Notes under the pieces: generated by a model | The model's database searches: none | What the model was told of the DNA's origin: nothing | Seen by the model: the letters and a program-made list of their open reading frames with translations, nothing else | Made by a program: the position numbers and the translations under genes | Shown here: positions 5,166 through 44,299 of the stretch, in pieces | How positions within the stretch are numbered: the stretch's first letter is position 1 | How the letters are laid out: every line of letters starts with the position of its first letter | NCBI GenBank assembly: GCA_943789005.1 | Contig: CALSSL010000001.1 | Coordinates: forward strand, 117,688-181,687 | Length of the DNA: 64,000 nucleotides | Direction of reading: 5' to 3' | DNA from: an uncultured SAR86 cluster bacterium | Lineage (GTDB): Bacteria > Pseudomonadota > Gammaproteobacteria > Magnimaribacterales > D2472

Positions 5166-5241
5166 TGGTGGGTCGCACAGGATTCGAACCTGTGACCAAT
5201 TGGTTAAAAGCCAACTGCTCTACCAGCTGAGCTAGCGACCC
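5166..5241 (-). tRNA. lysT: tRNA-Lys (anticodon UUU), CCA encoded
   Basis: The reverse complement reads GGGTCGCTAGCTCAGCTGGTAGAGCAGTTGGCTTTTAACCAATTGGTCACAGGTTCGAATCCTGTGCGACCCACCA. It is 76 nt, folds as a cloverleaf with anticodon loop CU-UUU-AA, and is nearly identical to E. coli tRNA-Lys. It lies downstream of cpoB as in E. coli. Confidence 0.97.
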
Positions 5242-5268: not shown

Positions 5269-5925
5269 TTATTCCATATTTTTCAATAACTGCAAGGCCA
5301 AAGATGATGCAGTATTGTTTGGGTATTCTCTGATAACAAAATTATACTTGTCTTTGGCTTTATCAAACTCATTATTTTTTAAAAAAATATCTCCAATCTT
5401 CTTATGAGCAAGTGGAATTCTGTAATGATCTGGATAAAGGGTAATAAGCTCTAGAAAGTATGTATTTGATGATTGATAATCTTCTTGAATGTATGCTATT
5501 TCTCCAAGCCAAAAATAAGACAACGGAAGTTTCTCATCATCTGAAAAACTTTCTACAAAGTATTTAAATAATAAAGATGATCTGTCAAAGTCTTGATCGC
5601 CTAAAGCCTTTATCGCAGTCTTATAAACTTCTTCTTTACTTTTTGCATCATCAACACCAGCAAATCTTATAGTATTGTTTGAGGAAAAATTATCTAAATC
5701 AGATTTATCAGCAGTTGAATCATCAGCACCCTGAACTGATTCCTGTATTAATTTTTGAATTAGATAATCTTGGGATTCTAATTTGTTTCTTAAATCTGCG
5801 ATTTCTAGTTCTAGTTCTTGTATTTTAAGAAATAAAAGATCTACCTCTACGCTATCACTTTCTTGTGAAAAAGAATTTAAGGAAATAATAAATAAAAAAG
5901 AGAAAAATAAATAATTTTTTTTCAT
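5269..5925 (-). CDS. cpoB: Cell-division coordinator CpoB (YbgF), TPR protein
   Basis: Signal peptide MKKNYLFFSFLFIISLNSFS, an N-terminal coiled coil and C-terminal TPRs. It is the last gene of the tol-pal cluster. Confidence 0.75.
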   Translation of the reverse strand: MKKNYLFFSFLFIISLNSFSQESDSVEVDLLFLKIQELELEIADLRNKLESQDYLIQKLIQESVQGADDSTADKSDLDNFSSNNTIRFAGVDDAKSKEEVYKTAIKALGDQDFDRSSLLFKYFVESFSDDEKLPLSYFWLGEIAYIQEDYQSSNTYFLELITLYPDHYRIPLAHKKIGDIFLKNNEFDKAKDKYNFVIREYPNNTASSLALQLLKNME

Positions 5926-5928
5926 TTA

Positions 5929-6432
5929 TTAATTTATTTCTGCTCTTCTATTTTTAGCATAACTTGACTCATCTGAACCAGATGAAAGAGGTCTCTCTTC
6001 ACCAAAACTTTTAACGATTATTCTATTGGAATTAATCCCGTTAACAGCAAAATAATCTCGAACTGCTTCAGCCCTTCTCTGTCCAAGTGCTAGATTGTAC
6101 TCTCTGGTTCCTCTTTCATCAGCATGACCAGAAATTGTAATTTTAATAGAAGGGTTATTTTTCATTGCGGCAACTGCGCTTTTTAAAGTTTGAAGTGACT
6201 TATTATTTAAATTAAATTTATCAAATTCAAAATAAACTGTAGCATTTGTAAAAATTGCTTTTGTTTCATATTCTAAAGGGTAATCTTCTTGAATTGAGGC
6301 TTCTACAGTGCTTATTCCACCATCATAAACAACCTCTTCAGTTACATTCATGCTTGAGCATGATGAAATAATAAAAATAAAAACAAAAAGATTAAATAAA
6401 TTTTTGTTATATGTCATTTGTATATTGAACAT
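5929..6432 (-). CDS. pal: Peptidoglycan-associated lipoprotein Pal
   Basis: Lipobox IISSC. OmpA-like C-domain with GHADERGTREYNLALGQRRAEAV and NRRAEI. Confidence 0.92.
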   Translation of the reverse strand: MFNIQMTYNKNLFNLFVFIFIISSCSSMNVTEEVVYDGGISTVEASIQEDYPLEYETKAIFTNATVYFEFDKFNLNNKSLQTLKSAVAAMKNNPSIKITISGHADERGTREYNLALGQRRAEAVRDYFAVNGINSNRIIVKSFGEERPLSSGSDESSYAKNRRAEIN

Positions 6433-6452
6433 TGATTATCTCCTGACTTAAA

Positions 6453-7730
6453 TTATCTTAAAAAACCGGACCATGAAGGTTCTCTTACTTCACCTATTTT
6501 AGTGGGCAACCTAAATCTTGCTCCACTTAATGTAACTCCAGCAAGGAGCCCTATTCCATTTTCCGATATTGCATAGACTATCACATTACCATTAGGAGAA
6601 ATACTGGGTGACTCATCTAATTGTGAATTAGTTAATGGTCTTACAAAGTTTTCATTGAAATATTTAAGAGCTATCTGGAAATTACTATTTTTTCGATGGA
6701 CAAAAATAACTCCCTCTCCACTCGGAAGATAGGACCCTTTAGCATTATAATTTCCCTCAAATGTTATTCTTTTAGGCTTGGCATTGGATTGTCTAAGATT
6801 AATTTCGTACAACTGGGGAGACCCAGACCTTCCTGATGTAAACATAATTTTTGATCCATTAGGTGACCATGAAGACTCGGTATCTATAGAATAGTGATTT
6901 GTTAATCTTGTTAAATTTTTATTCTTTAAATTTAATATATAAATTTCAGCATTACCATCCTGATACAAAGTTAATGATAAAAATTTTCCATTTGGTGACC
7001 ATGAAGGTGAGCTTATCTGATATTTATTCTCTAAAACAATCTCTCTTTTTCCTGAGGCAATGTTTTGAGTAAAAACTTTTGCCATACCAGTCTCAAAAGA
7101 AACATATGCTACCTGTTTAGAATCTGGTGACCATGATGGAGAAATAATTGGCTCAGTACTTTTAAGAAGTATTTGCTCATTAGCACCATCTGCATCTGCA
7201 ACAATCAATTTAAAGAGCGAACTTCCTTTTGAAGATTCTTCTTTAACGTACAATAATCTAGTTGATGCAATACCTTTTAACCCAGTGATTTCCTCATAAA
7301 CTCCATCGCTTATGTAATGAGACAGTTGTCTTAATTTATTTGGCACACCAAAAACTTTTGATGATCTAATTTGAGATTCTTTTTTTACATCGAATACTTT
7401 ATATGTTGCTGAAATATTACTTCTATCCTCTTCGACTACAGATCCCATAAGAATATAATCAATTCCCAATATTTTAAAATCACTATAATTTATATTCTCT
7501 TCATTAGTTGGTATTGATAACAGCTTATTATTTTCTAATATTTTAAATTCACCTGTTCTATCTAAATCGTTTTTTACAATATTCTTGATTTCATTTGTAG
7601 CTGATTTGCTGCCTTTAAAATTTATTAATGCAACTGTATAAGGATTATCAGAGCCCTTTGTAATTTCTAGTACCAATTCAGAAATAATGGGTTGTGATAG
7701 TAATATTAACAATATTAAGTTTTTTTTCAT
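6453..7730 (-). CDS. tolB: Tol-Pal system beta-propeller protein TolB
   Basis: 425 aa with a signal peptide. It has repeated SPSWSPD(S/G)K propeller blades. It lies between tolA and pal. Confidence 0.93.
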   Translation of the reverse strand: MKKNLILLILLSQPIISELVLEITKGSDNPYTVALINFKGSKSATNEIKNIVKNDLDRTGEFKILENNKLLSIPTNEENINYSDFKILGIDYILMGSVVEEDRSNISATYKVFDVKKESQIRSSKVFGVPNKLRQLSHYISDGVYEEITGLKGIASTRLLYVKEESSKGSSLFKLIVADADGANEQILLKSTEPIISPSWSPDSKQVAYVSFETGMAKVFTQNIASGKREIVLENKYQISSPSWSPNGKFLSLTLYQDGNAEIYILNLKNKNLTRLTNHYSIDTESSWSPNGSKIMFTSGRSGSPQLYEINLRQSNAKPKRITFEGNYNAKGSYLPSGEGVIFVHRKNSNFQIALKYFNENFVRPLTNSQLDESPSISPNGNVIVYAISENGIGLLAGVTLSGARFRLPTKIGEVREPSWSGFLR

Positions 7731-8284
7731 GCTGGATTAAAAGTAATTACTATATTTTTAAAACTATTTTGATACATGCTAAATGGAATTTTATTAAAAA
7801 AGGAAAACGTTTCAACTCTTGATATAGCCTTTATAGCTGAGTTATCAAATCGTATATTTCCACTACTTTTTATTAAATCAATCTTGATAACTCTTCCATT
7901 TTTATTAATAGTCATTCTTAGATCACAAATAAGACCATCTTGAATATTTTTAGGCTTTATCCATGCTGATTGAATGGCTTGAATAATAAGAGCGCTGAAC
8001 TCACTAACCAATAAATCTTCTGACTCTTGAAGTATCATCCCTTCTTCTTGAATTAATTGATCAATATTAATGTCGGGAATTACAGGTGTTAACTCAATTT
8101 TATTATCACTTTGATATAAGGCCTCGGAGCTGCTTGTTTGTTTTGCTATAACTTCTTTTTTAATTATTTGTGTTTTTGCTTCGTCTTTAAATAAAAGATT
8201 CACATTCACAGGCTTGCTCAATACTGGGTCTTTGCTGCTTTTCAAAATAAAAGAAATCGGTAAGGTATAATATGATTGTTGCAT
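7727..8284 (-). CDS. tolA: TolA body (linker plus C-terminal TolA/TonB-like domain), lacking its membrane anchor in this frame
   Basis: The C-terminal region ALIIQAIQSAWIKPKNIQDGLICDLRMTINKNGRVIKIDLIKSSGNIRFDNSAIKAI resembles TolA domain III. It sits between tolR and tolB. The ORF has no TM segment, and a TAA lies 2 codons upstream of its ATG. Confidence 0.75.
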   Translation of the reverse strand: MQQSYYTLPISFILKSSKDPVLSKPVNVNLLFKDEAKTQIIKKEVIAKQTSSSEALYQSDNKIELTPVIPDINIDQLIQEEGMILQESEDLLVSEFSALIIQAIQSAWIKPKNIQDGLICDLRMTINKNGRVIKIDLIKSSGNIRFDNSAIKAISRVETFSFFNKIPFSMYQNSFKNIVITFNPA

Positions 8285-8336
8285 GAATTACAAATGAAAT
8301 AAATGAAGCTGTAAAGTAGTCTGACTTAATCTGCAT
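8187..8336 (-). CDS. tolA: TolA N-terminal membrane anchor, encoded in a different frame from the tolA body (49 codons)
   Basis: Manual translation gives MQIKSDYFTASFISFVIHATIILYLTDFFYFEKQQRPSIEQACECESFI*. The ATG at 8336 overlaps the tolR stop (ATGCAGATTAA). Ser14-His18-Leu25 have the same spacing as Ser18-His22-Leu29 of the E. coli TolA anchor. Confidence 0.65.
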   Translation of the reverse strand: MQIKSDYFTASFISFVIHATIILYLTDFFYFEKQQRPSIEQACECESFI

Positions 8337-8748
8337 AACCGGTAGTAACTATTCCTATATTTGAAATTCCAACACCCTGAATGGCAGCCATAGCTTTGGC
8401 AACACTATCAAAAATAACATCCTTATCACTCTGAAAAACTATTTCGATATCAGGATTTGCCTCAAAAATAATGGTCGATTTTCTTTTTAATTCATTGAGA
8501 TCGATTGGTAAAGATTCATCTCCAACATTAATATAATAATTACCATTCTTATCTATTGATATTACCATCGGCTCATTTTGAACAGACATTTTAGTTGTAT
8601 CAGTGCTTGGGAGATTCACCTCCACACCCTGAATTAATAATGGGGAAAGAACCATAAAAATTATTAAAAGCACAAGCATCACATCAATGTATGGAACTAC
8701 ATTTATTTCTGCCTTTAAATTTTTTTTCTTTGCTAGCCTATAGATCAT
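8326..8748 (-). CDS. tolR: Tol-Pal system protein TolR (ExbD/TolR family)
   Basis: 140 aa. The N-terminal EINVVPYIDVMLVLLIIFMV segment contains the conserved Asp in the TM helix. It lies in the tolQ-tolR-tolA position. Confidence 0.88.
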   Translation of the reverse strand: MIYRLAKKKNLKAEINVVPYIDVMLVLLIIFMVLSPLLIQGVEVNLPSTDTTKMSVQNEPMVISIDKNGNYYINVGDESLPIDLNELKRKSTIIFEANPDIEIVFQSDKDVIFDSVAKAMAAIQGVGISNIGIVTTGYAD

Positions 8749-9420
8749 TTATTTTTTTATAGATTGCTTATAAAAAATACTAGCTAACTCTTCAGAAAAA
8801 ATTAATGTTGACTGACTAATTGTTTCTAGTTCTGACGTATATTTATTAAAAGCTATGACTGCAGGAATTGCCGCAAATAGTCCCATTGCAGTTGCAACCA
8901 GTGCTTCTGAAATTCCAGGCGCAACTGCGTTTATGGTTGCTTGGGTTGCGTCTGATAAACCTTGAAAAGATGTCATGATTCCCCACACTGTGCCTAATAG
9001 TCCTATGTATGGACTGACAGAACCAACATTAGCTAGAAAAGATAGATGCTTATTCATCTCTTCCTCATCTGAAGCTATTGCGACTCTCATAGATCTATTA
9101 ATTCCCTCTAGATCAAGTTCGGTGATTTCATTACTTTGGTCAATTTGAAGGAATTCTTTGAATGAGCTCTTAAAAACACTTAAAGCTCCGTATACTGGAA
9201 CTATTTCAGTTTTTATTTCATTGTATAAGAGGTTTAAATCCTCACCACTCCAAAATCTCTCAAGAAAACTATCATTAATTACTCTAATTTTTTTATAAAA
9301 ATTATATCTCTCAACTATAACTATCCATGTCAACAATGAAGCTATTAAAAGAATTACCATGACAGTTTTTACAACCATGCCAGCTTCTAGAAAAAGATTT
9401 AAAACAGAAATGTCATTCAT
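8749..9420 (-). CDS. tolQ: Tol-Pal system protein TolQ (MotA/TolQ/ExbB channel)
   Basis: 223 aa, 3 TM. The conserved C-terminal region is GLLGTVWGIMTSF ... AVAPGISEALVATAMGLFAAIPAVIAFN. Confidence 0.92.
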   Translation of the reverse strand: MNDISVLNLFLEAGMVVKTVMVILLIASLLTWIVIVERYNFYKKIRVINDSFLERFWSGEDLNLLYNEIKTEIVPVYGALSVFKSSFKEFLQIDQSNEITELDLEGINRSMRVAIASDEEEMNKHLSFLANVGSVSPYIGLLGTVWGIMTSFQGLSDATQATINAVAPGISEALVATAMGLFAAIPAVIAFNKYTSELETISQSTLIFSEELASIFYKQSIKK

Positions 9421-9424
9421 TCAC

Positions 9425-9841
9425 TTATCCTCTATCAAAAATTAATAATAAATCATTAGGGAAAGGTTTAGGTTTTTTTGTCAACACATTTACCAAGCAC
9501 ACCTCAACAACTCCACTGCATATTTTTTTAGATGTCTTTGTATTAAAAATCTCTTGACCAAAAACCATCCTAGCATTTGTTTTTTTTGTTACGTGAGTTT
9601 GAACAGTAAGCTCTTCTCCTAGTTTCGCAGGTAGTAGATAGTTTATTTCAATGCTTTTTATAACAAACACCAAATCTAACTCTTTTAATTCCATTTGTGA
9701 AATATTGTTAAAAGTTAAAAAATCTGAACGAGCTCTTTCGAAATACTTTATATAATTTGCGTGATATACAAATCCCTGAAAATCTGTATCTTCAACATAT
9801 ACGACTAAATTAAAGTCTTTATGTTTGAAAGTTTTGTTCAT
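9425..9841 (-). CDS. ybgC: Tol-Pal-associated acyl-CoA thioesterase YbgC (4HBT fold)
   Basis: VYVEDTDFQGFVYHANYIKYFERAR matches the YbgC catalytic Asp motif. It lies directly upstream of tolQ. Confidence 0.85.
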   Translation of the reverse strand: MNKTFKHKDFNLVVYVEDTDFQGFVYHANYIKYFERARSDFLTFNNISQMELKELDLVFVIKSIEINYLLPAKLGEELTVQTHVTKKTNARMVFGQEIFNTKTSKKICSGVVEVCLVNVLTKKPKPFPNDLLLIFDRG

Positions 9842-10310
9842 GCAACTCTATATCCTCTTGAAATAATTCAAGGATTATTTGAATGAAATCCGGCCACAGT
9901 AAGTCAACAGTTATAAGGTTATTTGATATTTTGCTATTAATACATGACGCCAAAACTCTAACTTTAATAGGCCTATTATTAAACTTATATACTAATGCAG
10001 GTTTAAGATTCTCTTCTTTCGAAGATGCTAAAACTTGATCCCACCAGTCAGGTCTTGGCTCAGCACCTGCACCGTAAGCTTTACATTCAATACACCAATT
10101 GCCCAATGTTAAATCTGGCAATTCTTTAGTTCTGGTTTGTTCTAAAATTCTCTTAACGGGATTGGTTAGGTTTAAATCTTGTATCAAAGCGTTAGCAATT
10201 TGTCTTTCAAATGCAGCGCCTTTATTTCTTGAATTAATAGACAATTTTTTACTCTTTAACCTCAAAATTTTCAGGAAATTCTGCGTTTGTATGAACTTCT
10301 TGAACATCAT
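9819..10310 (-). CDS. PD-(D/E)XK nuclease resembling archaeal Hjc / phage-type Holliday-junction resolvases; the start codon is uncertain
   Basis: Motifs KGAAFERQIANAL (Glu) and LPDLTLGNWCIECK (Asp-x8-Glu-x-Lys). It overlaps yebC by about 60 nt if the ATG at 10310 is used; TTG codons at 10265 and 10244 are alternatives. It overlaps the ybgC start by 23 nt. Confidence 0.5.
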   Translation of the reverse strand: MMFKKFIQTQNFLKILRLKSKKLSINSRNKGAAFERQIANALIQDLNLTNPVKRILEQTRTKELPDLTLGNWCIECKAYGAGAEPRPDWWDQVLASSKEENLKPALVYKFNNRPIKVRVLASCINSKISNNLITVDLLWPDFIQIILELFQEDIELHEQNFQT

Positions 10311-10986
10311 CTAGCTCATCCATAAAATCCATAATTTTTAAAACTTTTTCAGACATTTCTTGATCAAGAGCAACAGATGTTTCGGCTCTAAGCGTTAATT
10401 CTGCATTAGTATTTTCTATATTGTTTTGCTTAAGAGATTCGAGAACATTTGAAAGATTTGAGCTTGAGGTAATTATTTCAAAATATTCTTCTTCATCTAC
10501 TAAATCGTCAGCACCTGCCTCTAAAACTATCTCTAAGATTTCGTCTTCAGAATAGACTTTGGCAACATGAATTATTCCTATTTTATTAAAAAGATATGAA
10601 ACAGAACCATCGGTTCCAAGATTTCCACCAAACTTAGAAAAAGCATGCCTAACATCAGAAACAGTTCTATTTCTATTGTCTGACATTGCTTCAACCATGA
10701 TTGCAACTCCGCCTGGGCCATAACCTTCTAGAACTATTTCTTCAAGAGATCCTGTTTCACCAGTACCTGAGCCTTTCTCTATTGCTCTTTTAATATTGTC
10801 TTTAGGCATATTGGCAGCATTAGCCTTATCCAATGCAAGTCTTAGCCTGGGATTATCATCAGGATCTGGGCCGCCCTTGGCTGCAACAGTTATCTCTCTA
10901 ATAACCTTAGTCCAAACCTTACCTCTTGATGCATCTTGACGGGCTTTTCGATGTTTGATATTTGCCCATTTGGAATGTCCTGCCAT
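10249..10986 (-). CDS. yebC: YebC/PmpR (TACO1) family probable transcriptional regulator
   Basis: MAGHSKWANIKHRKARQDASRGKVWTKVIREI is the family hallmark N-terminus. It lies downstream of aspS. Confidence 0.93.
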   Translation of the reverse strand: MAGHSKWANIKHRKARQDASRGKVWTKVIREITVAAKGGPDPDDNPRLRLALDKANAANMPKDNIKRAIEKGSGTGETGSLEEIVLEGYGPGGVAIMVEAMSDNRNRTVSDVRHAFSKFGGNLGTDGSVSYLFNKIGIIHVAKVYSEDEILEIVLEAGADDLVDEEEYFEIITSSSNLSNVLESLKQNNIENTNAELTLRAETSVALDQEMSEKVLKIMDFMDELDDVQEVHTNAEFPENFEVKE

Positions 10987-10988
10987 TG

Positions 10989-12755
10989 CTATTCTTCCTT
11001 GTGAGTACTAATAATTTTAAGTTCTTCCAGTTGTGCATCATCAACTTTGCTTGGAGCATCAGTAAGCAAGCAAGTAGCGCTTTGTGTTTTTGGAAATGCA
11101 ATTACATCTCTGATATTAGTTGTATCAGTAATTAACATTACCAATCTATCCAAACCAAATGCAATGCCCCCATGGGGAGGACAGCCAGATGAAAGAGCTT
11201 TTAAAAGGAATCCAAATTTACTATTTGCCTCCTCCTTAGAAATATTTAAAATATCAAATATTGTTTTCTGCATATTAGCATTAAAGACCCTTAGAGAACC
11301 TCCGCCTATTTCATAACCATTTAAGACAATATCATATGCATGAGCAATAACCTTCTCTGGTTCATTTTTTAATTCATCCACAGAGCAATTTGGTAATGTG
11401 AATGGATGATGCAAAGATGTTAAATTTCCTTCTGAATTCTTTTCAAACATTGGGAAATCAACTACCCAGCATGGTGCCCATTTTTTTGTATATAAGTCTA
11501 GGTCTTCACCAATCTTTTTAATTAAGCTGCTCATACTGAGATTTACAACACCACTTTTACCGGCTCCAAAAAATATTAAATCATTATCATGAAGGCTAAG
11601 CTCTGATAGTAAAGTGGAGACTGTTTCATCTTTTAAGAATTTTAAAATAGGTGATTGGAGGCCGTTCTCAATATCAGTTTTATCGTTCACTTTGATATAT
11701 GCCAGACCTTTTGCACCAAGCTTTGAAACGAAATTTGTATAGTCATCTATTTGGCTTCTGGTAAAAGAGCTGCCACCCGGAATTTTTAATGCGACAACTC
11801 TTGAATTATCATCTTTAGCAGGCTCAGCAAAAACCTTAAACTCTTCATTCACAACTAAATCAGATATTTCAACGAGCTTTAAAGGAATTCTTAAATCAGG
11901 TTTGTCGCAACCATAGTCTCTCATAGAATCATGCCAATCTAAAACAGAAAAATCATCTAATCGATCATTACAAAATTTGTGAACTAAATTCTTAACCATG
12001 CCCTCTCCAACTTGCATAATGTATTTCTGATCTATAAAAGAAGCTTCTATATCAATCTGAGTAAACTCCGGTTGACGATCAGCTCTTAGGTCTTCATCTC
12101 TGAAACATCTTGCAATTTGATAATATTTATCTAGACCACCCATCATAAGAAGTTGTTTAAAAAGCTGAGGTGACTGAGGTAAGGCAAAGAATTTACCTGA
12201 CTGAACCCTGCTTGGAAGTATAAAATCTCTTGCACCCTCAGGAGTTGCTCTTGTAAGTATTGGAGTTTCTATTTCATGAAAATCATTTTCATCTAAATAG
12301 TTCCTTATCGTAGATGTGATCTTGGATCTTGTTACAATTCTATGATTCATCTCAGGGCGTCTGAGGTCTAAAACCCTATTTTTTAAACGAACATCTTCAT
12401 TAACATCCTGATAATCATCAAGTGGAAATACAGGAGTATCAGCTTTGCTTAAGATTTTAATATCTTTACTCTCAAGCTCTATCTCTCCAGTTAACATATT
12501 TTTGTTAATAGTGCCTTCTAGCCTTGCTTTGACTACGCCAGAAATTTGAACAACATATTCATTTCTCAAGCTTTCAGCAATAGCAAATGATTTTGCATTA
12601 TCAGGGTTTATTACAGCCTGACAAATGCCTTTTATATCTCTAACATCAAGAAAAATTACTCCTCCATGATCACGTCTTTTATGAATCCAGCCACAAATAG
12701 TTACTTCATGATCAAGTTCTTTTGATGTAATTTCTCCACAATAGTGAGATCTCAT
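10989..12755 (-). CDS. aspS: Aspartate--tRNA ligase
   Basis: 588 aa bacterial-type AspRS: the N-terminal OB fold starts MRSHYCGE, followed by class II motifs [18 protein letters not shown] and [12 protein letters not shown]. Confidence 0.96.
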
Positions 12756-13123: not shown

Positions 13124-14404
13124 ATGTTGTTTTCAAAATTATTACTGCCTACATTAAAAGATGCTCCTCAAGAAGCAGAGGTTATTAGTCATAAGCTAAT
13201 GCTCAGAGCTGGCATGGTTAGAAAGGTAGCGTCAGGAATATATACATGGCTTCCAATGGGGTTAAAAGTTCTTAGAAAAATTGAGAATATTGTTAGAGAA
13301 GAAATGGATGCTTCTGGTGCTCAAGAAGTGTTAATGCCAATGGTTCAGCCAAAAGAGTTGTGGGATGAAACTAATAGATGGGAAAAAATGGGCCCAGAAC
13401 TTCTAAGAATTCAAGATAGGCATAAAAGAGATTTCTGCTTAGGCCCAACTCATGAGGAAGTTATAACAGATCTTATAAGAAACAATGTTAAAAGTTATAA
13501 AGAATTGCCTTTGAATATATATCAAATACAAACAAAATTTAGAGATGAAGTAAGACCAAGATATGGAGTTATGAGAGGAAGAGAATTTCTTATGAAAGAT
13601 TCTTATAGTTTTAATATTGACGAAGCCTGTCTTGAAGAAACCTACTTAACTATGAGGAATACCTATAAAAAAGTTCTAGAGAGAATGAATCTTGATTATA
13701 AGATTGTTTCAGCAGATTCTGGCGCTATTGGTGGAGATGCTTCAGAAGAATTTCATGTTCTAGCTGAAACAGGTGAAGATACTATAGCTGTTAGTGATAG
13801 CTCTGAATATGCTATAAACACTGAACTACTGCTTAAAGATGGTGAAGATATATCATCTCTTGAAGGAAAGCCATCACCTGATGGCAAGGGAACAATTGAA
13901 ATTAAAAAAGGTATTGAGGTTGGTCATATATTCCAACTAGGAAAGGTTTATGCCGAAGATATGAAAGCAAATGTCTTAAACAATGAAGGCAAAGCATCTA
14001 CTCTATATATGGGGTGTTATGGAATTGGGGTTTCAAGACTTGTAGCTGCAGCTATTGAGCAAAACAATGATGATAAAGGTATTGTTTGGCCTCACAGCAT
14101 AGCTCCATTTGATATAAATATTATTGCAATTGGCTTTGAGAAAGATCAAAAAATAGCAGAAGCCTCTTACAATCTTTATAAAGAGTTAATTGAAATGGGC
14201 TACGATGTCTTATTAGATGACCGTAAAGATGGTTTCGGAACTAAAATCAAAGATTCCGAATTAATAGGAATTCCAATGAATATTATTATTGGTAAGCAGT
14301 TCTTAGAAACAGAGGAAATAGAATTTAGAACAAGATCTGGAGATACATCTCTAAGCAAAATATCAGATTCACAAACTATCTTAGACTTCTTTAAAGATAA
14401 ATAA
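13124..14404 (+). CDS. proS: Proline--tRNA ligase, bacterial type, lacking the INS editing domain
   Basis: 426 aa. Motifs [38 protein letters not shown] and [16 protein letters not shown]. The region between motifs 2 and 3 is only a short linker (about 25 aa), where E. coli ProRS has about 180 aa. Confidence 0.9.
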
Positions 14405-14424
14405 GCCCTTGGGTTTATAATTTA

Positions 14425-14724
14425 TCAATCTATACCTTCTTCAGCATTTATAAATGCCTGTTCAACATATGGAAGCCTATCTTCTTTTCCTCCAAATGTA
14501 TCTGGATCCATTAATGACTCAATTACAGACAATGATCTATTAGATCCTTTTGGCCAATTATTAAAAATTTCAGTTAGTTTTTTTGTAATCTCAGGTTTGT
14601 TTTTTGATATATCTAATTCTTCAGTTGGATCTTTAAATATGTTGTATAACTCAACATTATCTTCATTGATTATTAATTTATATGGAGCACTAATAACCGC
14701 ATATTTGTCATTTAAAATATTCAT
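14425..14724 (-). pseudogene. Remnant: C-terminal fragment of an arylsulfatase-family gene
   Basis: The 99-aa ORF contains KLIINEDNVELYNIFKDPTEELDISKNKPEITKKLTEIFNNW, the usual sulfatase C-terminal (W)KL...ELY(D/N)...DP.E..N pattern. No catalytic N-terminal domain is present anywhere upstream. Confidence 0.55.
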
Positions 14725-14739
14725 TGATTTTCAATATCT

Positions 14740-14881
14740 TAATGAATTTATAAAGTTTGCTGATATGGATAAATTAGGCTTAATACTGATTAGACCAGAC
14801 GGACATATAGCGCTTAGAGCCGTTCCAAATAAAGATAATAAAAATATTTTAACTAGCTATTTTGAGGAAATAGGTTTTTAG
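14740..14881 (+). pseudogene. Remnant: C-terminal fragment of an FAD-dependent aromatic-ring monooxygenase-family gene
   Basis: The tail of the 94-aa ORF reads FADMDKLGLILIRPDGHIALRAVPN, matching the LVRPDGHVAWR signature at the C-terminus of PheA/TfdB-type hydroxylases. The N-terminal part of the ORF is antisense to the sulfatase remnant and looks non-coding. Confidence 0.5.
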
Positions 14882-14894
14882 TAATTTTATATAC

Positions 14895-16073
14895 TTATAA
14901 TCTTTTAATAATAGTAGCGTTTGCTGTTCCACCGCCTTCACAGATAGCTTGAAGAGCATACATGCCTTCTCTTCTTTCTAGCTCATGAAGCAAGGTTGTC
15001 ATCAGCTTTGCTCCTGTAGCACCTAGAGGATGGCCAAGTGCCATTGCTCCTCCATTTACATTCAGTTTAGTTCTATCAGCCTTAAGCTCTGCAGCCCAAG
15101 CCAAAGGCACTGGGGCAAAAGCCTCATTCACTTCATATAAGTCAATGTCATCAATGCTTAAGTTAGCTACTGATAGAGCTTTATGTGATGCAGGAATTGG
15201 TCCAGTTAACATATAGACAGGATCATCCCCAACAACTGAGATTGATACAATTTCTGCTCTAGGGTTTGCATTAATTTTTTTAAGTCCTGCTTCATTACAA
15301 ACAAGAACTGCTGCAGCGCCATCTGTAATCTGACTTGCATTACCAGCAGTAACTACCCCGCCTTCAGATACAGTTTTAAGTCCTGCTAGTTTTTCAAGAC
15401 TTGCATCAAATCTTATACCCTCATCTGCAGTGACCATTTCTTCAATACCCTCAGCATTTTTAGCCTGAACCGGAAGAATCTCTCTATCAAAATACTTCAA
15501 TTCAGTAGCTTTTGCAGCTTTTTGATGACTCTCAAGAGCAAACTGATCTAAGTCTTCTCTTGATAGATTCCATTTTTTAGCTACTAATTCAGCACCTGTA
15601 AATTGAGAGAAAAATACACCTGGATATCTAGCTTTAATACCATCAGAATCAAAGGGGAAACCATGACCAGCATCATAACCATCCTTAACCGATGCTCCAA
15701 TTGGAACCATAGACATTACTTCAACTCCACCACCAATTACGATATCTTGAGTGCCTGACATTACTGCTTGAATTGCAAAATGAATCGCTTGTTGAGAAGA
15801 CCCACATTGCCTATCAACGGATGTGCCTGGAACTGATTCTGGATATGATGAAGAAAGGATTGCATTCCTAGCAACATTTCCTGACTGGGCACCAACCTGG
15901 TCTACACATCCAAAAATAACATCATCAACTAGCGATGGATCCATATCAAGTCTTGCTGCTATTTCATCTAGTACTTTTGCTCCTAAGTCGGCTGGATGCC
16001 AAAGACTTAACCTGCCATCCCTTTTTCCACCTGCGGTTCTAACTGCTTCTACAATATAAGCTTTTTCTGCCAT
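14895..16073 (-). CDS. Acetyl-CoA C-acetyl/acyltransferase (thiolase)
   Basis: 392 aa. Nucleophile Cys in VDRQCGSSQQAI. C-terminal NVNGGAMALGHPLGATGAKL and CEGGGTANATI. Confidence 0.92.
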   Translation of the reverse strand: MAEKAYIVEAVRTAGGKRDGRLSLWHPADLGAKVLDEIAARLDMDPSLVDDVIFGCVDQVGAQSGNVARNAILSSSYPESVPGTSVDRQCGSSQQAIHFAIQAVMSGTQDIVIGGGVEVMSMVPIGASVKDGYDAGHGFPFDSDGIKARYPGVFFSQFTGAELVAKKWNLSREDLDQFALESHQKAAKATELKYFDREILPVQAKNAEGIEEMVTADEGIRFDASLEKLAGLKTVSEGGVVTAGNASQITDGAAAVLVCNEAGLKKINANPRAEIVSISVVGDDPVYMLTGPIPASHKALSVANLSIDDIDLYEVNEAFAPVPLAWAAELKADRTKLNVNGGAMALGHPLGATGAKLMTTLLHELERREGMYALQAICEGGGTANATIIKRL

Positions 16074-16124: not shown

Positions 16125-17141
16125 TTACTTTGTAGATTTTGCTCTACTAGCGATAAAAGCCTCTCTAATTTCTTTCAATAGGCTTTCTCTAATTTTGGCA
16201 TTTTCTTTAAGAAACATACTAGCCTTGACTTTACCTTGACCGATAGTCTCGCCATTCATTTTATAAAATGCACCTGACTTCTCAATCAATCCAAGTTTAT
16301 GGCCATAATCTAATATTTCACCCTCTGAATTAATACCTTGGCCATACATGATTTGGAATTCCGCTTGTTTAAATGGAGGAGATACCTTGTTCTTAACAAC
16401 CTTTACTCTAGTTTCATTACCCATTATCTCATCGCCTTCTTTAACAGCTCCAATTCTTCTAATATCTAACCTAACTGAAGAGTAAAATTTTAAGGCATTA
16501 CCGCCTGTAGTTGTTTCAGGACTTCCAAACATAACGCCAATCTTCATTCTAATTTGATTGATAAATACAACTGTTGCACCGGATCTTTGAATGTTGCCTG
16601 TAATTTTCCTTAATGCTTGAGACATTAATCTAGCTTGTAGACCAACATGATGATCACCCATCTCACCTTCTATTTCAGCTCTCGGAACAAGAGCAGCTAC
16701 CGAATCTATTATTACCAAATCAACACTATTTGATTTCACTAACATGTCAGCAACCTCTAAAGCTTGCTCTCCTGTATCAGGTTGTGAAAGTAATAACTCG
16801 TCTACATTTACCCCAAGTTTTTCAGCGTACTGAGGATCTAGTGCATGCTCTGCATCAATAAAAGCACATGTTCCACCTTCTTTTTGACATTCAGCAATTA
16901 TTTGAAGTGTTAACGTTGTTTTTCCGGATGATTCAGGTCCATATATTTCAGTGACCCTTCCTTTAGGTATGCCGCCAATTCCTAGTGCTATATCCAGCCC
17001 CACTGAACCAGTTGATATTGATGGAATATCTAAAATTTCTTTATCGCCCATTCTCATTACGGTTCCTTTACCGAAATGACTATCTATATCTGCAAGTGTA
17101 TCCTTTAATGATTTTGAACCTGTATCTTTTGATTTAGCCAT
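16125..17141 (-). CDS. recA: Recombinase RecA
   Basis: 338 aa. Walker A is [12 protein letters not shown], followed by [18 protein letters not shown] and the L2 region. The call is unambiguous. Confidence 0.98.
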
Positions 17142-28629: not shown

Positions 28630-28658
28630 ATTCTAAATGAATTGATATATAGAATCAA
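28630..28658 (-). promoter_or_regulatory. Putative sigma-70 promoter of rpsF-rpsR-rplI
   Basis: The minus strand reads TTGATT (28658-28653), a 17-nt spacer, then TAGAAT (28635-28630). The -35 overlaps the ftsA stop codon. Confidence 0.4.
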
Positions 28659-29881
28659 TACTCGCTTTTAACTATCTTAAGGAGTTTGGAAATCCAGCTT
28701 TGGCTCTGTTCTGCTATTAAATCATCATTCATTTGTTTGAATCCATGATCGACCAAGCCGATAGATGTAGCATATATTGGATTTTGAAGAATACTTTCCA
28801 TTCCAGAGAACTTATTTGGTATTCCTAGCCTGACTGATGTTTGAAAAATAGATTCAGCCAATTCTACAACACCTTCCATTTTGGAAGTTCCGCCAGTGAA
28901 TACTATTCCAGCAGAAATTTTTTCTTCAAAACCATTTCTAGTAATCTCAGCTTTTACTAATTCAAATAACTCTGTATATCTTGGTTGAATAATATCAGCT
29001 AAAGAGCTTCTAGATAATTCTCTTGTGGGCCTCCCTCCAACTCCTGGGACTTCGATACTTTCGTCATCTTTTGTAAATTCGGTGACTGAACATCCGTGTT
29101 TTTGTTTAATTTCTTCAGCTTGAGGCGTTGGTGTTCTTAAGGCCTGAGCAATATCACTTGTTACCTGGTCGCCTGCTATTGGTATAACTCCGGTAAACAC
29201 AATTGAGCCTGAATTAAATATTGCAATATCCGTAGTTCCACCTCCAATATCAACCAAACAAACTCCTAACTCTTTCTCATCTTCTGATAATATAGAATGT
29301 GAGCTAGCTAATTGCTCTAAAACAAATCCATCTACAGACAAACCACAATTCTTAATACATTTTTCAATATTTTTTACGGCACTGTTTGCACATGTTACTA
29401 AATGAACTTTAGCTTCGAGTCTAACCCCGGCCATTCCTAGAGGATCAAGGCTTACTTCTTGATTATCAATAACATACTCTTGAGGCAAAACATGCAAGAC
29501 GTTTTGATCTGAAGGAATTGAGACTGCTTGAGCAGAATCAATTACCCTATCAATATCATATGGTGTTACTTCTTTATCTTTTATTCCAACCGCGCCTTGA
29601 GAATTTAAACTTTTGATATGACTTCCAGCTATCCCGACATAAACAGACTTTATTTTTTCTTCTATCATTGACTGAGCCTGTTCTACAGCTTTTTTAATAG
29701 CATCTGTGGTTGCATCTATGTTTACCACAACACCTTTCTTTAGACCGCTTGAAGGATAAGCCCCTAAGGCAATGATTTCTAATTTTTCATGTTCATTGTA
29801 TTTGCCAACAATACAAACTACTTTAGAGGTTCCTATATCTAAGCCAACAACTATATTAGAATTTTTTACATTATTTGCCAT
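28655..29881 (-). CDS. ftsA: Cell-division protein FtsA
   Basis: 408 aa actin-fold protein. [23 protein letters not shown] and GIVFTGGTS. Confidence 0.96.
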   Translation of the reverse strand: MANNVKNSNIVVGLDIGTSKVVCIVGKYNEHEKLEIIALGAYPSSGLKKGVVVNIDATTDAIKKAVEQAQSMIEEKIKSVYVGIAGSHIKSLNSQGAVGIKDKEVTPYDIDRVIDSAQAVSIPSDQNVLHVLPQEYVIDNQEVSLDPLGMAGVRLEAKVHLVTCANSAVKNIEKCIKNCGLSVDGFVLEQLASSHSILSEDEKELGVCLVDIGGGTTDIAIFNSGSIVFTGVIPIAGDQVTSDIAQALRTPTPQAEEIKQKHGCSVTEFTKDDESIEVPGVGGRPTRELSRSSLADIIQPRYTELFELVKAEITRNGFEEKISAGIVFTGGTSKMEGVVELAESIFQTSVRLGIPNKFSGMESILQNPIYATSIGLVDHGFKQMNDDLIAEQSQSWISKLLKIVKSEY

Positions 29882-33821: not shown

Positions 33822-34928
33822 TTATATTAATTTGTTTTCTTTATTTATTCTAAGCACTATGGCAACTAAAGACATCATTATGATGATACTGGTGCCTCCA
33901 TAACTTATAAATGGAAGTGTTAATCCCTTTGTTGGTAACAAGCCAATATTAACAGCTATATTAAATAAAGATTGGATAGCTATAAGAATTAATATTCCAA
34001 ATGAAGTATAGCCCTGAAATAATCTTTCTTTGCCAAAAGAATCTAATGCAACCTTTAAAATACCAATAAAAAGTATTACGAATAGCACTATTAAAAATAA
34101 TCCTCCAATAATTCCAATCTCTTCAACAAGAATAGCAAAAATAAAGTCAGTATGAGCTTCTGGAAGAAAGAAATTTTTTTGAAAACTATTACCTATACCC
34201 AGCCCGAACCAGCCTCCTTGTCCAATACTAATTAAAGAGTTGGATAGTTGCCATCCTGCATTTCTTACCACATCTTCTGCAAAAGGATCAGTAAAGGCTA
34301 ATATTCTTGCTAGTCTCATAGGTGAAGTTGATATTGCCATATACCCCAACAAGGCAATTAAAATTGATAACAAACTAAATTGAAAGAAAGATATTCCAGC
34401 ATAAAATAAAATTGAAACAACTAATAAACAAATAATTGCAGTGGATCCCAAATCAGGTTGACTCATTATTAAAACAGAAATTATAAAAAGTAAAAATAGA
34501 GGTTTTAAAAAGCTTCTTAATGAGTCTATTTCAGACATTCTTCTTACTGAATATCCTGAAATATATAGTATCAAACTAAACTTACATATTTCTGAAGGTT
34601 GAATATTAATTGGTCCCGCCTTTATCCACCTAATGCTTCCATTAACACTAGTACCAATGTCGGGAATAAATAATGCGATTAATAAAGCAATACTTACCAA
34701 CATAAAAACCCAGTCTAGTTTGTATAAAATATCTGACGGGATTAGTAAAAATATAGACATTGATATAAGCCCTATAGATATAAATAACATTTGACGAGAA
34801 GCAAAATAAAATGGGTTTCCAGTCAAATCATCAGCTACATATATACTTGATGAGGTTACCATAACTATACCTAGTGAAATTAGACTTATAAAAGGAATAA
34901 GTATCAGGAGACTATTCTTATCAGTCAC
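33822..34928 (-). CDS. ftsW: Peptidoglycan glycosyltransferase FtsW (SEDS family)
   Basis: 368 aa, 10 TM. PSEICKF, LPEAHTDFIFA and GLLPTKGLTLPFISYGG. Confidence 0.92.
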   Translation of the reverse strand: MTDKNSLLILIPFISLISLGIVMVTSSSIYVADDLTGNPFYFASRQMLFISIGLISMSIFLLIPSDILYKLDWVFMLVSIALLIALFIPDIGTSVNGSIRWIKAGPINIQPSEICKFSLILYISGYSVRRMSEIDSLRSFLKPLFLLFIISVLIMSQPDLGSTAIICLLVVSILFYAGISFFQFSLLSILIALLGYMAISTSPMRLARILAFTDPFAEDVVRNAGWQLSNSLISIGQGGWFGLGIGNSFQKNFFLPEAHTDFIFAILVEEIGIIGGLFLIVLFVILFIGILKVALDSFGKERLFQGYTSFGILILIAIQSLFNIAVNIGLLPTKGLTLPFISYGGTSIIIMMSLVAIVLRINKENKLI

Positions 34929-35946
34929 CTAAAACCTCTTTTACTAGAAAGTTAAAGTGAGCGCCTCTCTCTTCAAAGTTAATATAATCTTTGCCACTTG
35001 GGTATCCTGGAGAAAATACTATATTTTGTTTGTCTTTTAAATATATTAAGGATTCTTTTAAATCAACGAACTCTAAAATTTTTTTATGAATCAGGCATTT
35101 TTGAATATCTTCTCGATGATGTCCAAATACTATTATTTCCTGAGGGCCCTTAATGATAATTTTTGAAAATAGTTCTTTTGCGGGATTACCACAAACAATT
35201 AAAGAATAATTATCTTCCTGGAAAAAAGAATTCGCTTCTTTAATTGCATACAACAGAGAGTCAGAGTTTGTTGATTTTGAATCATTCACAATGTTTTCAC
35301 TTATAAATTCAAATCTATAAGGCAAATTCTTGAGTTCTATTTTTTTTGATTTTTTTCCTGTAATCCATTTGAAGAGATTATACGGATCACTCTCAAAAGA
35401 AAATTTTTTTGCATTTAATATTTTTTCTTTAGCGTATTGATACTCTTCAAAGCTTTTATGATAATCAAGATGGTCAGGGGCTATATTTAACAAAACTCCA
35501 TAATCTAAATAATTATTAGACATCTTATCAAGCTGATAGCTTGATAGTTCTATTATTGAATATTTCTTCCCATTATTGATTTCGTCCAACATGGGCTTTC
35601 CAATATTGCCAATAAGATTTACTGATTCGTTCTGAGCAATTAGTTGTGATAAGTGAAAACAAGTAGTACTTTTCCTATTAGTTCCGGTTATTCCTATTTT
35701 TATAGAATTATCCTCATGAAAAAAAATATCTAAGTCTGTTAAAACATCATATGTTTTTTTTAGTAATTTAAATTTATCTCTTGAAATGCCTGGACTGCAA
35801 TATATTTTATTATATTTTGAAAAATCTTTGTATGAAGAATACTTCAAGATATTCTCATCATAAATATCATAATCTATGTTTCTTTTAAGAAGATACCTTT
35901 CAAAAGACTTTCCCGTGATTCCATAACCATAAATTAAGGATTTCAT
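34921..35946 (-). CDS. murD: UDP-N-acetylmuramoylalanine--D-glutamate ligase, unusually compact (341 aa), with P-loop GTNRKST
   Basis: It sits between mraY and ftsW. IGITGTNRKSTT, LNIAPDHLDYH and NDSKSTN match the Mur-ligase/MurD motifs. Confidence 0.75.
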   Translation of the reverse strand: MKSLIYGYGITGKSFERYLLKRNIDYDIYDENILKYSSYKDFSKYNKIYCSPGISRDKFKLLKKTYDVLTDLDIFFHEDNSIKIGITGTNRKSTTCFHLSQLIAQNESVNLIGNIGKPMLDEINNGKKYSIIELSSYQLDKMSNNYLDYGVLLNIAPDHLDYHKSFEEYQYAKEKILNAKKFSFESDPYNLFKWITGKKSKKIELKNLPYRFEFISENIVNDSKSTNSDSLLYAIKEANSFFQEDNYSLIVCGNPAKELFSKIIIKGPQEIIVFGHHREDIQKCLIHKKILEFVDLKESLIYLKDKQNIVFSPGYPSGKDYINFEERGAHFNFLVKEVLGD

Positions 35947-41463: not shown

Positions 41464-41740
41464 TCTTTTCTATTTTTCTTTCTAATTTTTTTGGTTTTTT
41501 TTTGACCATTCCCAGAGTTTCTATTGATTTTTTTTCTATTGTTGCGGGTGAGTTATTTGAATGAAATTGGGTTAAGAGTTTTATATTCCTATCTTTGAAA
41601 TCTTCATACTCAATGAATAAATTTTGTTGGTTTGAATTCAATCTATTTATTTCAAAAGATAATTTTATTTGCTCTAAACTTAAAAAACAGAGAAAAATTA
41701 GCAACATAAATGGTATCAAATATTGAAATTCTTTCTTCAT
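41453..41740 (-). CDS. ftsL: Cell-division protein FtsL
   Basis: 95 aa with a TM segment, a leucine-zipper-like coil and the IEKKSIETLGM motif. It sits between rsmH and ftsI. Confidence 0.7.
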   Translation of the reverse strand: MKKEFQYLIPFMLLIFLCFLSLEQIKLSFEINRLNSNQQNLFIEYEDFKDRNIKLLTQFHSNNSPATIEKKSIETLGMVKKKPKKLERKIEKNEN

Positions 41741-42630
41741 AATTTTTTAAAAACTCTCATAATTGCACTTCTTGATCTTTTATTAATTTCTATTTCATTT
41801 TTTGATGGCCTCACCTTCTTTGCAATGCATGAAAAATCAGCTGTTTGAATTGTATTCAATGGTATATCTTTTGGAAAACTCTTTACGTTTGGCCTAAAAA
41901 AATTTTTAACAATATTATCTTCTAGGGAATGAAATGAGATAACTACAATTACTCCGTCTTTTTTTATAATTTTACTTGCCTGGTTTAATGATTCCGTTAG
42001 TTGATTTAATTCATCATTAATGAATATTCTAAAAGCTTGAAATGATTTTGTTGCTGGATGAATCTTAATTTTTTTTTCAGGATAGATGTCTGCAATAATT
42101 TCTGAAAGTTGAAGGGTTGTTTTAATAAATTCTATTTTTCTACTTTCTATAATTCTTTTAGCAATTAGCTTTCCATGTTTTTCTTCTCCATATTTATAAA
42201 GTACTTCCATAATTTCTTCTTGCGAAGCTCTATTAATCCATTTAGATAATGGTTCTCCTTTTGATGTATTAAAACGCATATCAAGAGGGCCATCACTTCT
42301 AAAGCTAAACCCCCTAGAACCATCATCAAAATGTGTTGAGCATGTGCCTAGATCATATAAAATGCCATCGATAGAATTATTTTCAAAATATCTATCAATC
42401 TTATTAAATGATTTATGTATTGAACAAAAATTGTCTTTAGAAATATTTAAAGAGTGTTTAAAAGCATCGGGATCTTTATCAAATGATGTTAAGTGACCTT
42501 CTTCAGAGATTTTATCTAATATTGCTGAGGAATGACCGCCTCTTCCATAAGTACAATCTATGTAATTACCATTTATTTTTTGAACTAGAAAATCAACTGA
42601 CTCTTCCAGTAATACTGGAAAATGAAGCAT
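41737..42630 (-). CDS. rsmH: 16S rRNA (cytosine1402-N4)-methyltransferase
   Basis: HFPVLLEESVDFL, DCTYGRGGHS, DLGTCSTHFD and ISFHSLEDNIVK. Confidence 0.96.
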   Translation of the reverse strand: MLHFPVLLEESVDFLVQKINGNYIDCTYGRGGHSSAILDKISEEGHLTSFDKDPDAFKHSLNISKDNFCSIHKSFNKIDRYFENNSIDGILYDLGTCSTHFDDGSRGFSFRSDGPLDMRFNTSKGEPLSKWINRASQEEIMEVLYKYGEEKHGKLIAKRIIESRKIEFIKTTLQLSEIIADIYPEKKIKIHPATKSFQAFRIFINDELNQLTESLNQASKIIKKDGVIVVISFHSLEDNIVKNFFRPNVKSFPKDIPLNTIQTADFSCIAKKVRPSKNEIEINKRSRSAIMRVFKKL

Positions 42631-42631
42631 A

Positions 42632-43741
42632 TTAGTCTACTTGTTTTCTCATAAAAGTTGGCACATCGAGGAAATCAATTTCCGCTGCAGACGATGTGCC
42701 ACCTTTCTGACTTATATGTTCTTTACTCAATCCTACCGGATTTAGTTTAATTGAAGGTTGGTTATCAATTACTAAAGTTGGTGCTCTTTGATCAACTCCA
42801 GTTGCTACAATTGTTACTAATAAATCATCATCAACACTTTCATCGTAAACTAATCCATAAATTATATTTGCATCTTCATGAACTATTTCTTCTACGATAT
42901 CTGCTACTTCTGTTTGGTCTCCAAGTGTTGGTTTTGCTGCTGTAATATTTACAAGAACACCTCTAGCATTTTTAAGATTTATATCTTCAAGCAATTCACT
43001 TCTAACTGCCTGAGTTGCAGCAGCTGCAGCTCTATTTTTTCCACTTGCTCTCCCAGTACCCATCATTGCAATTCCTTTCTCAGACATAACTGTCTTTACA
43101 TCAGCAAAGTCAACATTTATATGCCCTTTTTTCATAATAATATCTGAAATGCCCTGAACTGCTCCCTTGAGCACATCGTCAGCCTTAGCAAAAGCATCTT
43201 GCATGGCAGTATCTTCTCCTAGAATTTCATATAACTTTTGGTTAGGTATAGTTACCAAACTATCGACTTCTTCCACTAGAGCTGCCAAACCCTTTTCAGC
43301 AGCAGTCATTCTTCTCTTACCCTCAAATTTAAATGGCTTAGTAACAACAGCAACTGTTAATGCTCCTAAATCTTTTGCTATTGAGGCAACAACAGGAGCA
43401 GCTCCAGTTCCTGTACCACCTCCCATTCCAGCTGTAATAAATATCATATCAGCGCCAACTAAAAGCTCTTCTATTGCTGCTCTGTCGCTTTCCGCAGCTT
43501 TTCTTCCAATATCTGGGTTTGCGCCAGCTCCTAGCCCTTTTGTAAGCCCATTACCAAGCTTTAAAGTGATTGCTCCATTAGCTTGTGATAAAGCTTGCGT
43601 ATCAGTATTGGCACAAATAAAGTCTACGCCTTCTATATTATGATTAATCATATGGATGACTGCATTTCCGCCAGCCCCCCCAACACCAACCACTTTTATC
43701 TTAGCATTCTCTACGGCTTGACCTATTACTTCAAAATTCAT
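42632..43741 (-). CDS. ftsZ: Cell-division GTPase FtsZ, in a non-canonical position between mraZ and rsmH
   Basis: 369 aa. VGVGGAGGNA, the tubulin signature GMGGGTGTGAAPV and the conserved C-terminal peptide DFLDVPTFMRKQ. Confidence 0.98.
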   Translation of the reverse strand: MNFEVIGQAVENAKIKVVGVGGAGGNAVIHMINHNIEGVDFICANTDTQALSQANGAITLKLGNGLTKGLGAGANPDIGRKAAESDRAAIEELLVGADMIFITAGMGGGTGTGAAPVVASIAKDLGALTVAVVTKPFKFEGKRRMTAAEKGLAALVEEVDSLVTIPNQKLYEILGEDTAMQDAFAKADDVLKGAVQGISDIIMKKGHINVDFADVKTVMSEKGIAMMGTGRASGKNRAAAAATQAVRSELLEDINLKNARGVLVNITAAKPTLGDQTEVADIVEEIVHEDANIIYGLVYDESVDDDLLVTIVATGVDQRAPTLVIDNQPSIKLNPVGLSKEHISQKGGTSSAAEIDFLDVPTFMRKQVD

Positions 43742-44284: not shown

Positions 44285-44299
44285 AAAAATACGTATAAA

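Follow-up and report, generated by a model that had tools for sequence, protein, structure and literature searches.

An Hjc-like PD-(D/E)XK nuclease of phage kinship holds the ruvCAB position in SAR86 bacteria and is a candidate stand-alone Holliday junction resolvase

SAR86 is among the most abundant bacterial groups of the surface ocean. We analysed a 64-kb stretch of DNA from an uncultured SAR86 cluster bacterium (contig CALSSL010000001.1; G+C 31.5%; hereafter the window), in which a small gene between yebC and ybgC encodes a PD-(D/E)XK nuclease resembling the archaeal Holliday junction resolvase Hjc. On the minus strand the genes run aspS, yebC, nuclease, ybgC, tolQ, tolR, tolA, tolB, pal and cpoB (Table 1), an order that had already been recognized in an initial reading of the bare sequence (hereafter the original prediction). 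The same reading held that the slot taken by the nuclease usually contains ruvC-ruvA-ruvB. In Pseudomonas aeruginosa, ruvB is presumably followed by ybgC-tolQRAB-oprL. Upstream of this, the published order is PA0964 pmpR(yebC), PA0965 ruvC, PA0966 ruvA and PA0967 ruvB (PMC6448920), which bears out the view of the slot and puts the nuclease, directly after yebC, in the position of ruvC. Reading the window by eye, we saw no ruvA, ruvB or ruvC in its 64 kb, and none was found within the ±10 kb flanks of 86 orthologous loci.

The nuclease gene comprises 141 codons. An open reading frame (ORF) at 9819–10310, as originally predicted, is present between yebC and ybgC, and its 23-nt overlap with the start of ybgC (9819–9841) stands, but the predicted length of 163 codons and the overlap with yebC do not: a gap of 4 nt separates the yebC stop codon from the TTG start codon of the nuclease. 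Across the 86 SAR86 loci the codon for residue 1 is TTG in 72 and ATG in 14, and 85 of them have no in-frame ATG upstream of it. Because the start codon is conserved and an upstream ATG is missing in all but one locus, we assign 141 codons to the gene and reject the 163-codon version. The 22 extra codons reflect the 3' end of yebC, which is open in the nuclease frame in the source genome and its closest relative, and the majority of database homologues are annotated at 141 aa. At least one database protein, the metagenomic P0142, has the C-terminal residues of YebC fused to the nuclease N terminus, which indicates that frameshifts or over-long gene calls at this junction, like the 163-codon reading, exist in public data. 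A scan for promoters and terminators returned counts near those of shuffled controls, with no convincing site around the nuclease gene.

The 141-aa protein matched the Pfam family PF24608 (PDDEXK_15, 'phage putative PDDEXK endonuclease') with 38.5 bits against a gathering cut-off of 27, over profile positions 1–112 of 164; the 163-aa version scored 37.8 bits. It also matched PHROG 244 (E = 7.6e-13), for which 'RusA-like Holliday junction resolvase' is a label only, the fold not being that of RusA. A database search returned 657 homologues, and the family is small, with only 241 clusters at E ≤ 0.001 when all of 1.84 billion cluster representatives were searched. We aligned 53 full-length relatives sharing 28–58% identity with the window protein. 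All of them matched PF24608, and the columns G9, E13, R32, D44, E53, K55 and Q70 were invariant. These include the complete PD-(D/E)XK catalytic set, which is carried by the motifs KGAAFERQIANAL and, 31 residues on, LPDLTLGNWCIECK; the E...D-x8-E-x-K layout noticed at the outset was thus correctly spaced, with E13, D44, E53 and K55 all invariant. Profile searches, which had been proposed as a check, returned a PDDEXK nuclease family, but neither Pfam Hjc nor RecU. The window protein had no match to RecU (PF03838) or RusA (PF05866) in Pfam, none in NCBIfam, none among PDB chains in a single-sequence search, and none among the PADLOC-DB defence models (0 families at E ≤ 1). Judged by hidden Markov model score and by shared invariant residues, it is a true member of PF24608. 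It is a remote homologue of Hjc within this phage-centred family and lies outside the Pfam Hjc family proper. The orthologous SAR86 genes are currently annotated 'hypothetical protein' in databases.

An AlphaFold2 model built from the family alignment (mean predicted local distance difference test score 93, predicted template modelling score 0.87) has the order alpha-beta-beta-beta-alpha-beta, its catalytic residues lying on helix 1 and strands 2 and 3 (helices at residues 3–23 and 65–78; strands at 45–47, 50–57 and 81–88). When this model was compared with the PDB in Foldseek, the structural check that the original prediction had called for, the top 21 matches were all archaeal Hjc or Hje resolvases (E = 9.6e-5 to 5.5e-2, probability 0.90–1.00, template modelling (TM) score 0.43–0.59; entries 2wcw, 2wiw, 1ob8, 1gef, 2eo0 and 4tkd). 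They came from Archaeoglobus fulgidus (Hjc, including DNA complexes), Sulfolobus solfataricus (Hje and Hjc), Pyrococcus furiosus (Hjc) and Sulfolobus tokodaii (ST1444), and after them the probability dropped to ~0.5. No structure of NucS/EndoMS, MutH, Vsr, RecB/Cas4, RecU or RusA appeared in the Foldseek PDB top 50, and no VRR-NUC structure was among the top matches. Together with the Pfam search, the top 50 rule out a RusA-like fold, RecU and a Cas4/RecB-like nuclease.

Comparisons based on the family profile agreed with the model. Hjc chains ranked best when the profile was run against PDB sequences, though below threshold, and an hhalign comparison of the family with A. fulgidus Hjc gave 79.9% probability (E = 1.4e-5), the segments KG..FER, PD and IE.K lining up. 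In a viral structure library the best matches (TM ~0.8) were unnamed phage proteins, and several annotated phage or archaeal-virus junction resolvases were found among the weaker ones. Taken alone, the assignment of the protein as a nuclease of this fold is, in our judgement, highly probable.

The likeness to Hjc and Hje (PF01870; 2wcw, 2wiw, 1gef, 1ob8 and 1hh1) extends to size and active site. Both are small proteins of ~125–145 aa with a PD-(D/E)XK core, in which helix 1 carries the glutamate, strand 2 opens with the aspartate and strand 3 bears E-x-K. Hjc works without RuvAB, and the same is presumed for the window protein. Unlike the archaeal enzymes, the window family is bacterial and phage-borne, and it has its own R32, Q36 and WW-x-Q motif and a C-terminal helical extension.

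All contexts that we sampled outside SAR86 were phage-like. The closest outgroup (P0135; 45% identity, 38% G+C) is encoded on a contig listed as viral in IMG/VR, with a VapE-type primase-helicase and a DUF3799 protein as neighbours. Another relative (P0146) has a temperate-phage layout comprising an integrase, a YqaJ exonuclease with an ERF annealing protein, DnaB-primase, a RecA-dependent nuclease, PDDEXK_15 and terminase. On three IMG/VR contigs of ~62% G+C (L095, L103 and L107), in the region around 5300–12400, PDDEXK_15 directly follows a gene for a ~900-aa primase-like protein. By eye, a Sak4-like ATPase and a single-stranded DNA-binding protein with an acidic ...DDDIPF tail lie a few kb away on these contigs. 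Together, the genes on the three contigs look like a compact replication/recombination module. Three further family members were found amid dense small ORFs without family matches, and matches of 28–39% identity in GenBank phages are annotated 'putative PDDEXK endonuclease' or 'RusA-like Holliday junction resolvase'. The SAR86 sequences formed a single clade in a neighbour-joining tree, with P0135 as sister and the whole nested in phage diversity. From this placement and the single fixed location of the gene, we infer that an ancestor of SAR86 may have captured it from a phage once. Whereas the sampled members of PF24608 outside SAR86 belong to phage replication/recombination modules, the SAR86 branch is chromosomal, part of a housekeeping operon and vertically inherited.

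A genome scan with the single window protein, using one genome per species, gave 119 relatives, and we used the best 80 loci. The majority of these bear the title SAR86 cluster bacterium; the others are marine metagenome-assembled genomes titled Gammaproteobacteria, Proteobacteria or Pseudomonadota, and one locus is labelled Rhodospirillaceae. Identity to the window protein ranged from 62 to 98% among the best 80 of 119, with SCGC AAA168-P09 the closest (98%). The arrangement aspS-yebC-nuclease-ybgC-tolQ-tolR, uniformly spaced, was present in 86 of 86 loci, followed by tolB wherever the contig extends far enough, and every SAR86 copy of the nuclease in this set was intact at 140–142 aa. Two remoter representatives (57% and 58% identity) also have the nuclease directly after yebC; one of them continues with ybgC-tolQ-tolR, and the contig of the other stops at the nuclease gene. 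The catalytic residues do not vary within SAR86, nor does most of the core.

The median ratio of non-synonymous to synonymous substitution rates (dN/dS) was 0.071 (451 pairs with unsaturated dS), and hence the gene is under strong purifying selection. Considered with the 657 homologues and the Pfam score above the gathering cut-off, this ratio shows that the gene is more than a chance ORF. The view that it is an integral member of the locus and not a recent insertion was confirmed by its fixed position and low dN/dS, and the proposed check on orthologues showed the same slot in every one of the 86 loci. In the SAR86 order the nuclease is a long-standing housekeeping gene, passed down vertically. 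Its family being otherwise phage-borne, one might still take the gene for a phage remnant or selfish passenger without cellular function, or for an anti-phage defence nuclease. Such a reading is hard to square with an intact gene at one fixed position in all 86 loci across an order-level radiation, with the low dN/dS, or with tight packing among housekeeping genes, one of which it overlaps. No other phage genes were found near it in the window or in the flanks of the orthologous loci, and the empty PADLOC result rules out a defence nuclease. Conservation and the PADLOC result effectively refute both versions, which we regard as extremely improbable.

RuvAB and RuvC or RecU belong to the nearly universal set of recombination genes in bacteria, and they serve as markers in phylogeny and in completeness estimates (PMC1193525; PMC11582366). 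Among 117 bacterial species surveyed, the only genomes without RuvAB were those lacking RecA and those of Wigglesworthia and Aquifex, and both RuvC and RecU were missing in only ten genomes (PMC1193525). According to Table S1 of PMC11582366, the closed genome of the SAR86 isolate HIMB1674 lacks the markers for RuvA (PF01330 and PF07499, its N- and C-terminal domains), the RuvB C terminus (PF05491) and RuvC (PF02075), and the per-genome columns read 0 for all but one or two genomes. The same study found 27 of 28 missing markers to be systematically absent from 732 environmental SAR86 genomes. RadA, RecN, MutS and MutL markers are also absent from HIMB1674, and RecO and RecR are present in SAR86 (PMC11582366); the SAR86 recombination and repair kit looks strongly reduced. 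YbaB/EbfC, ClpB, PrfC, LolA and others are listed there as absent from SAR86 as well.

On these losses the main text of PMC11582366 says only, in general terms, that several of the missing markers have to do with recombination and repair of DNA; it names no ruv gene and contains no word starting with 'ruv', no 'Holliday' and no 'resolvase'. Neither ruv, repair nor recombination is mentioned by Dupont et al. 2012, and our literature search found no paper tying SAR86 to an alternative resolvase, nor any on PDDEXK_15. The published absence of the Ruv markers (Table S1), the slot and the Hjc-like fold together support the replacement of RuvABC that the original prediction had put forward.

A different enzyme could in principle resolve junctions in SAR86, either YqgF/RuvX or one that is not recognized, leaving the nuclease-like protein as a non-catalytic DNA-binding or regulatory accessory. 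YqgF is nowadays considered a nuclease acting on pre-16S rRNA, which speaks against this. Its family (PF03652) is present in SAR86 by the marker data of PMC11582366, and Rocha et al. proposed it as a possible substitute where RuvC and RecU are missing, but they describe its resolvase activity as undemonstrated and note that it co-occurs with RuvC or RecU in most genomes (PMC1193525). An accessory role for the window protein is also at odds with its four invariant catalytic residues and the strong purifying selection on its gene, and we think it very unlikely.

More serious is the possibility that the protein is an active PD-(D/E)XK nuclease with another housekeeping role, its place after yebC being coincidental. 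It might cleave flaps, D-loops or forks that have stalled or reversed, or serve as a nicking enzyme that partly covers for the lost MutS/MutL or RecN/RadA, whose missing markers fit such a role. The core is common to many nuclease types, and the resolvases of phages typically accept a range of branched DNAs (PMC3864405). However, the structural neighbours of the window protein are exclusively junction resolvases, with no NucS/EndoMS, MutH, Vsr, RecB/Cas4 or RecU structure in the Foldseek top 50, the gene occupies the exact ruvC position, and its phage relatives are found in replication/recombination modules, the usual place of resolvases. On this evidence, another housekeeping role appears unlikely.

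The most economical reading is that the nuclease is the junction resolvase of the cell, because RecA and RecOR are kept and RuvABC appears to be lost, the protein has the fold and catalytic residues of Hjc and the pedigree of a phage resolvase, and its gene sits in the vacated ruvC slot, packed against yebC. We propose that it probably does the job of RuvABC alone, in an order-wide, in-place and non-orthologous replacement by a domesticated phage resolvase. When expressed, the RusA prophage resolvase suppresses E. coli ruvA, ruvB and ruvC mutants in a RecG-dependent manner. RusA, from the cryptic prophage DLP12 of E. coli, is likewise a phage-derived stand-alone resolvase able to replace the whole of RuvABC; it differs from the window protein in fold and family, and it is silent in E. 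coli and only a laboratory suppressor, whereas the substitution in SAR86 would be natural, fixed and order-wide. We lean, by a little, towards a broader form of the proposal, in which the whole SAR86/Magnimaribacterales order resolves recombination intermediates by a domesticated phage resolvase of Hjc type, standing alone without a RuvAB motor. This would be the natural, fixed counterpart of laboratory rus suppression, with genome streamlining leaving a minimal kit of RecA, RecOR and one 141-aa nuclease.

In mechanistic terms, an ancestor of the SAR86 order would have captured the nuclease from a phage, and the gene would have become fixed between yebC and ybgC, at the former ruvC-ruvA-ruvB site. 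A homodimer of the nuclease would bind the four-way junctions made by RecA, similar to Hjc and phage resolvases, and an active site of E13, D44, E53 and K55 would use Mg2+ to make two symmetric nicks, yielding ligatable duplexes. No RuvAB motor would be needed, and the nuclease would supply the junction resolution lost with RuvABC. The comparisons above show directly the family, the fold, the invariant catalytic residues, the purifying selection, the fixed position in the order and the phage context of the relatives sampled outside SAR86; from them we infer junction cleavage, dimerization, junction specificity and the role in vivo.

Several points weigh against this proposal. Structurally the protein resembles Hjc to a moderate degree (TM 0.5–0.6, 12–24% identity), and the window protein falls below the threshold of the Pfam Hjc family (PF01870), with no match at E ≤ 10; only 3 of the 53 relatives matched that family, weakly (best E = 0.0016). 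Enzymatic activity is a prediction for all members of PF24608 alike, PD-(D/E)XK enzymes of the same core have many other jobs, and the homodimer is putative. For the absence of RuvABC we draw on published marker data (PMC11582366) and not on a survey of the source genome, and SAR86 has kept YqgF/RuvX, once proposed as a resolvase. RecG, RecA, PriA and RecJ have no entry in the accessible supplementary files of PMC11582366, and a branch-migration helicase such as RecG may or may not accompany the nuclease.

Two bacterial resolvases offer further points of comparison with the proposed replacement. RuvC has the same genomic place directly after yebC and the same presumed role as the window nuclease, but an unrelated RNase H-like fold, and it acts inside the RuvAB branch-migration complex (PMC1193525). 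RecU, of Firmicutes and Mollicutes, is the classic PD-(D/E)XK resolvase that replaces RuvC in bacteria (PMC1193525). Lineages with RecU keep RuvAB (PMC1193525), whereas SAR86 is without RuvA and RuvB markers too (PMC11582366), and RecU rarely adjoins ruvAB (PMC1193525), whereas the replacement in SAR86 would be in place.

The protein family, the superfamily, the replacement of RuvC by the PD-(D/E)XK enzyme RecU and, in a supplementary table, the loss of RuvABC from SAR86 are already known. What appears to be new is the link between these facts: a distinct phage-derived, Hjc-like family would have taken the ruvCAB locus in place, with loss of RuvA and RuvB, in a globally abundant gammaproteobacterial order. 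A 141-aa phage-derived nuclease in the vacated slot is a concrete, testable answer to the question of how SAR86 completes homologous recombination. If correct, it would give a function to an uncharacterized phage family (PF24608), provide a clean natural case of a phage gene taking over in place from non-orthologous ones, and point to a compact, self-sufficient junction resolvase that could be studied. It would also improve the annotation of genes now labelled 'hypothetical protein' and aid the reading of SAR86 genome completeness estimates.

Table 1 Features of the window, with positions counted from its first nucleotide
Feature	Position	Strand	Remarks
Nuclease gene (141 aa, Hjc-like PD-(D/E)XK, PF24608 PDDEXK_15)	9819-10244	-	TTG start, Pfam, model, orthologues
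Nuclease start codon TTG	10244-10242	-	
Catalytic codon E13	10208-10206	-	
Catalytic codon D44	10115-10113	-	
Catalytic codon E53	10088-10086	-	
Catalytic codon K55	10082-10080	-	
22 upstream codons outside the nuclease gene (yebC 3' end and 4-nt spacer)	10245-10310	-	Open in nuclease frame
yebC (TACO1/YebC family)	10249-10986	-	Directly upstream of nuclease; PF01709, PF20772
yebC stop codon	10251-10249	-	
aspS (aspartyl-tRNA synthetase)	10989-12755	-	Head of gene string
ybgC-type acyl-CoA thioesterase	9425-9841	-	PF13279, PF03061
Downstream string tolQ-cpoB	5269-9420	-	
tolQ	8749-9420	-	
tolR	8326-8748	-	
tolA	7727-8284	-	Pfam-checked
tolB	6453-7730	-	
pal	5929-6432	-	
cpoB	5269-5925	-	Pfam-checked
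recA (strand-exchange protein making junctions)	16125-17141	-	~6 kb from nuclease; PF00154 in orthologous loci
tRNA	5169-5241	-	Downstream of cpoB
proS	13124-14404		
Small ORF in proS-thiolase spacer	14425-14724	-	No Pfam match
Small ORF in proS-thiolase spacer	14597-14881	+	No Pfam match
Thiolase gene	14895-16073		
ftsA	28655-29881	-	
ORF in murD position	34921-35946	-	341 aa
rsmH	41737-42630	-	
ftsZ	42632-43741	-	
mraZ	43755-44222	-	
RNase P RNA, bacterial class A	44299-44633	-	316.6 bits

Elsewhere in the window, two genes seem distinctly short beside those of E. coli: tolA, at just 185 aa, and the ORF in the position of murD, at 341 aa. Rfam matches in the window were confined to the RNase P RNA, between mraZ and rsmI, and the single tRNA. 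The ftsZ gene lies between mraZ and rsmH, where the division and cell-wall cluster begins; its usual place is after ftsA, which in the window is followed by rpsF (identified by eye). Between proS and the thiolase gene there is a spacer of ~490 nt (14405–14894), which is only ~75 nt in related SAR86 loci such as L001. The two overlapping small ORFs in this spacer may be gene remnants or a small insertion.

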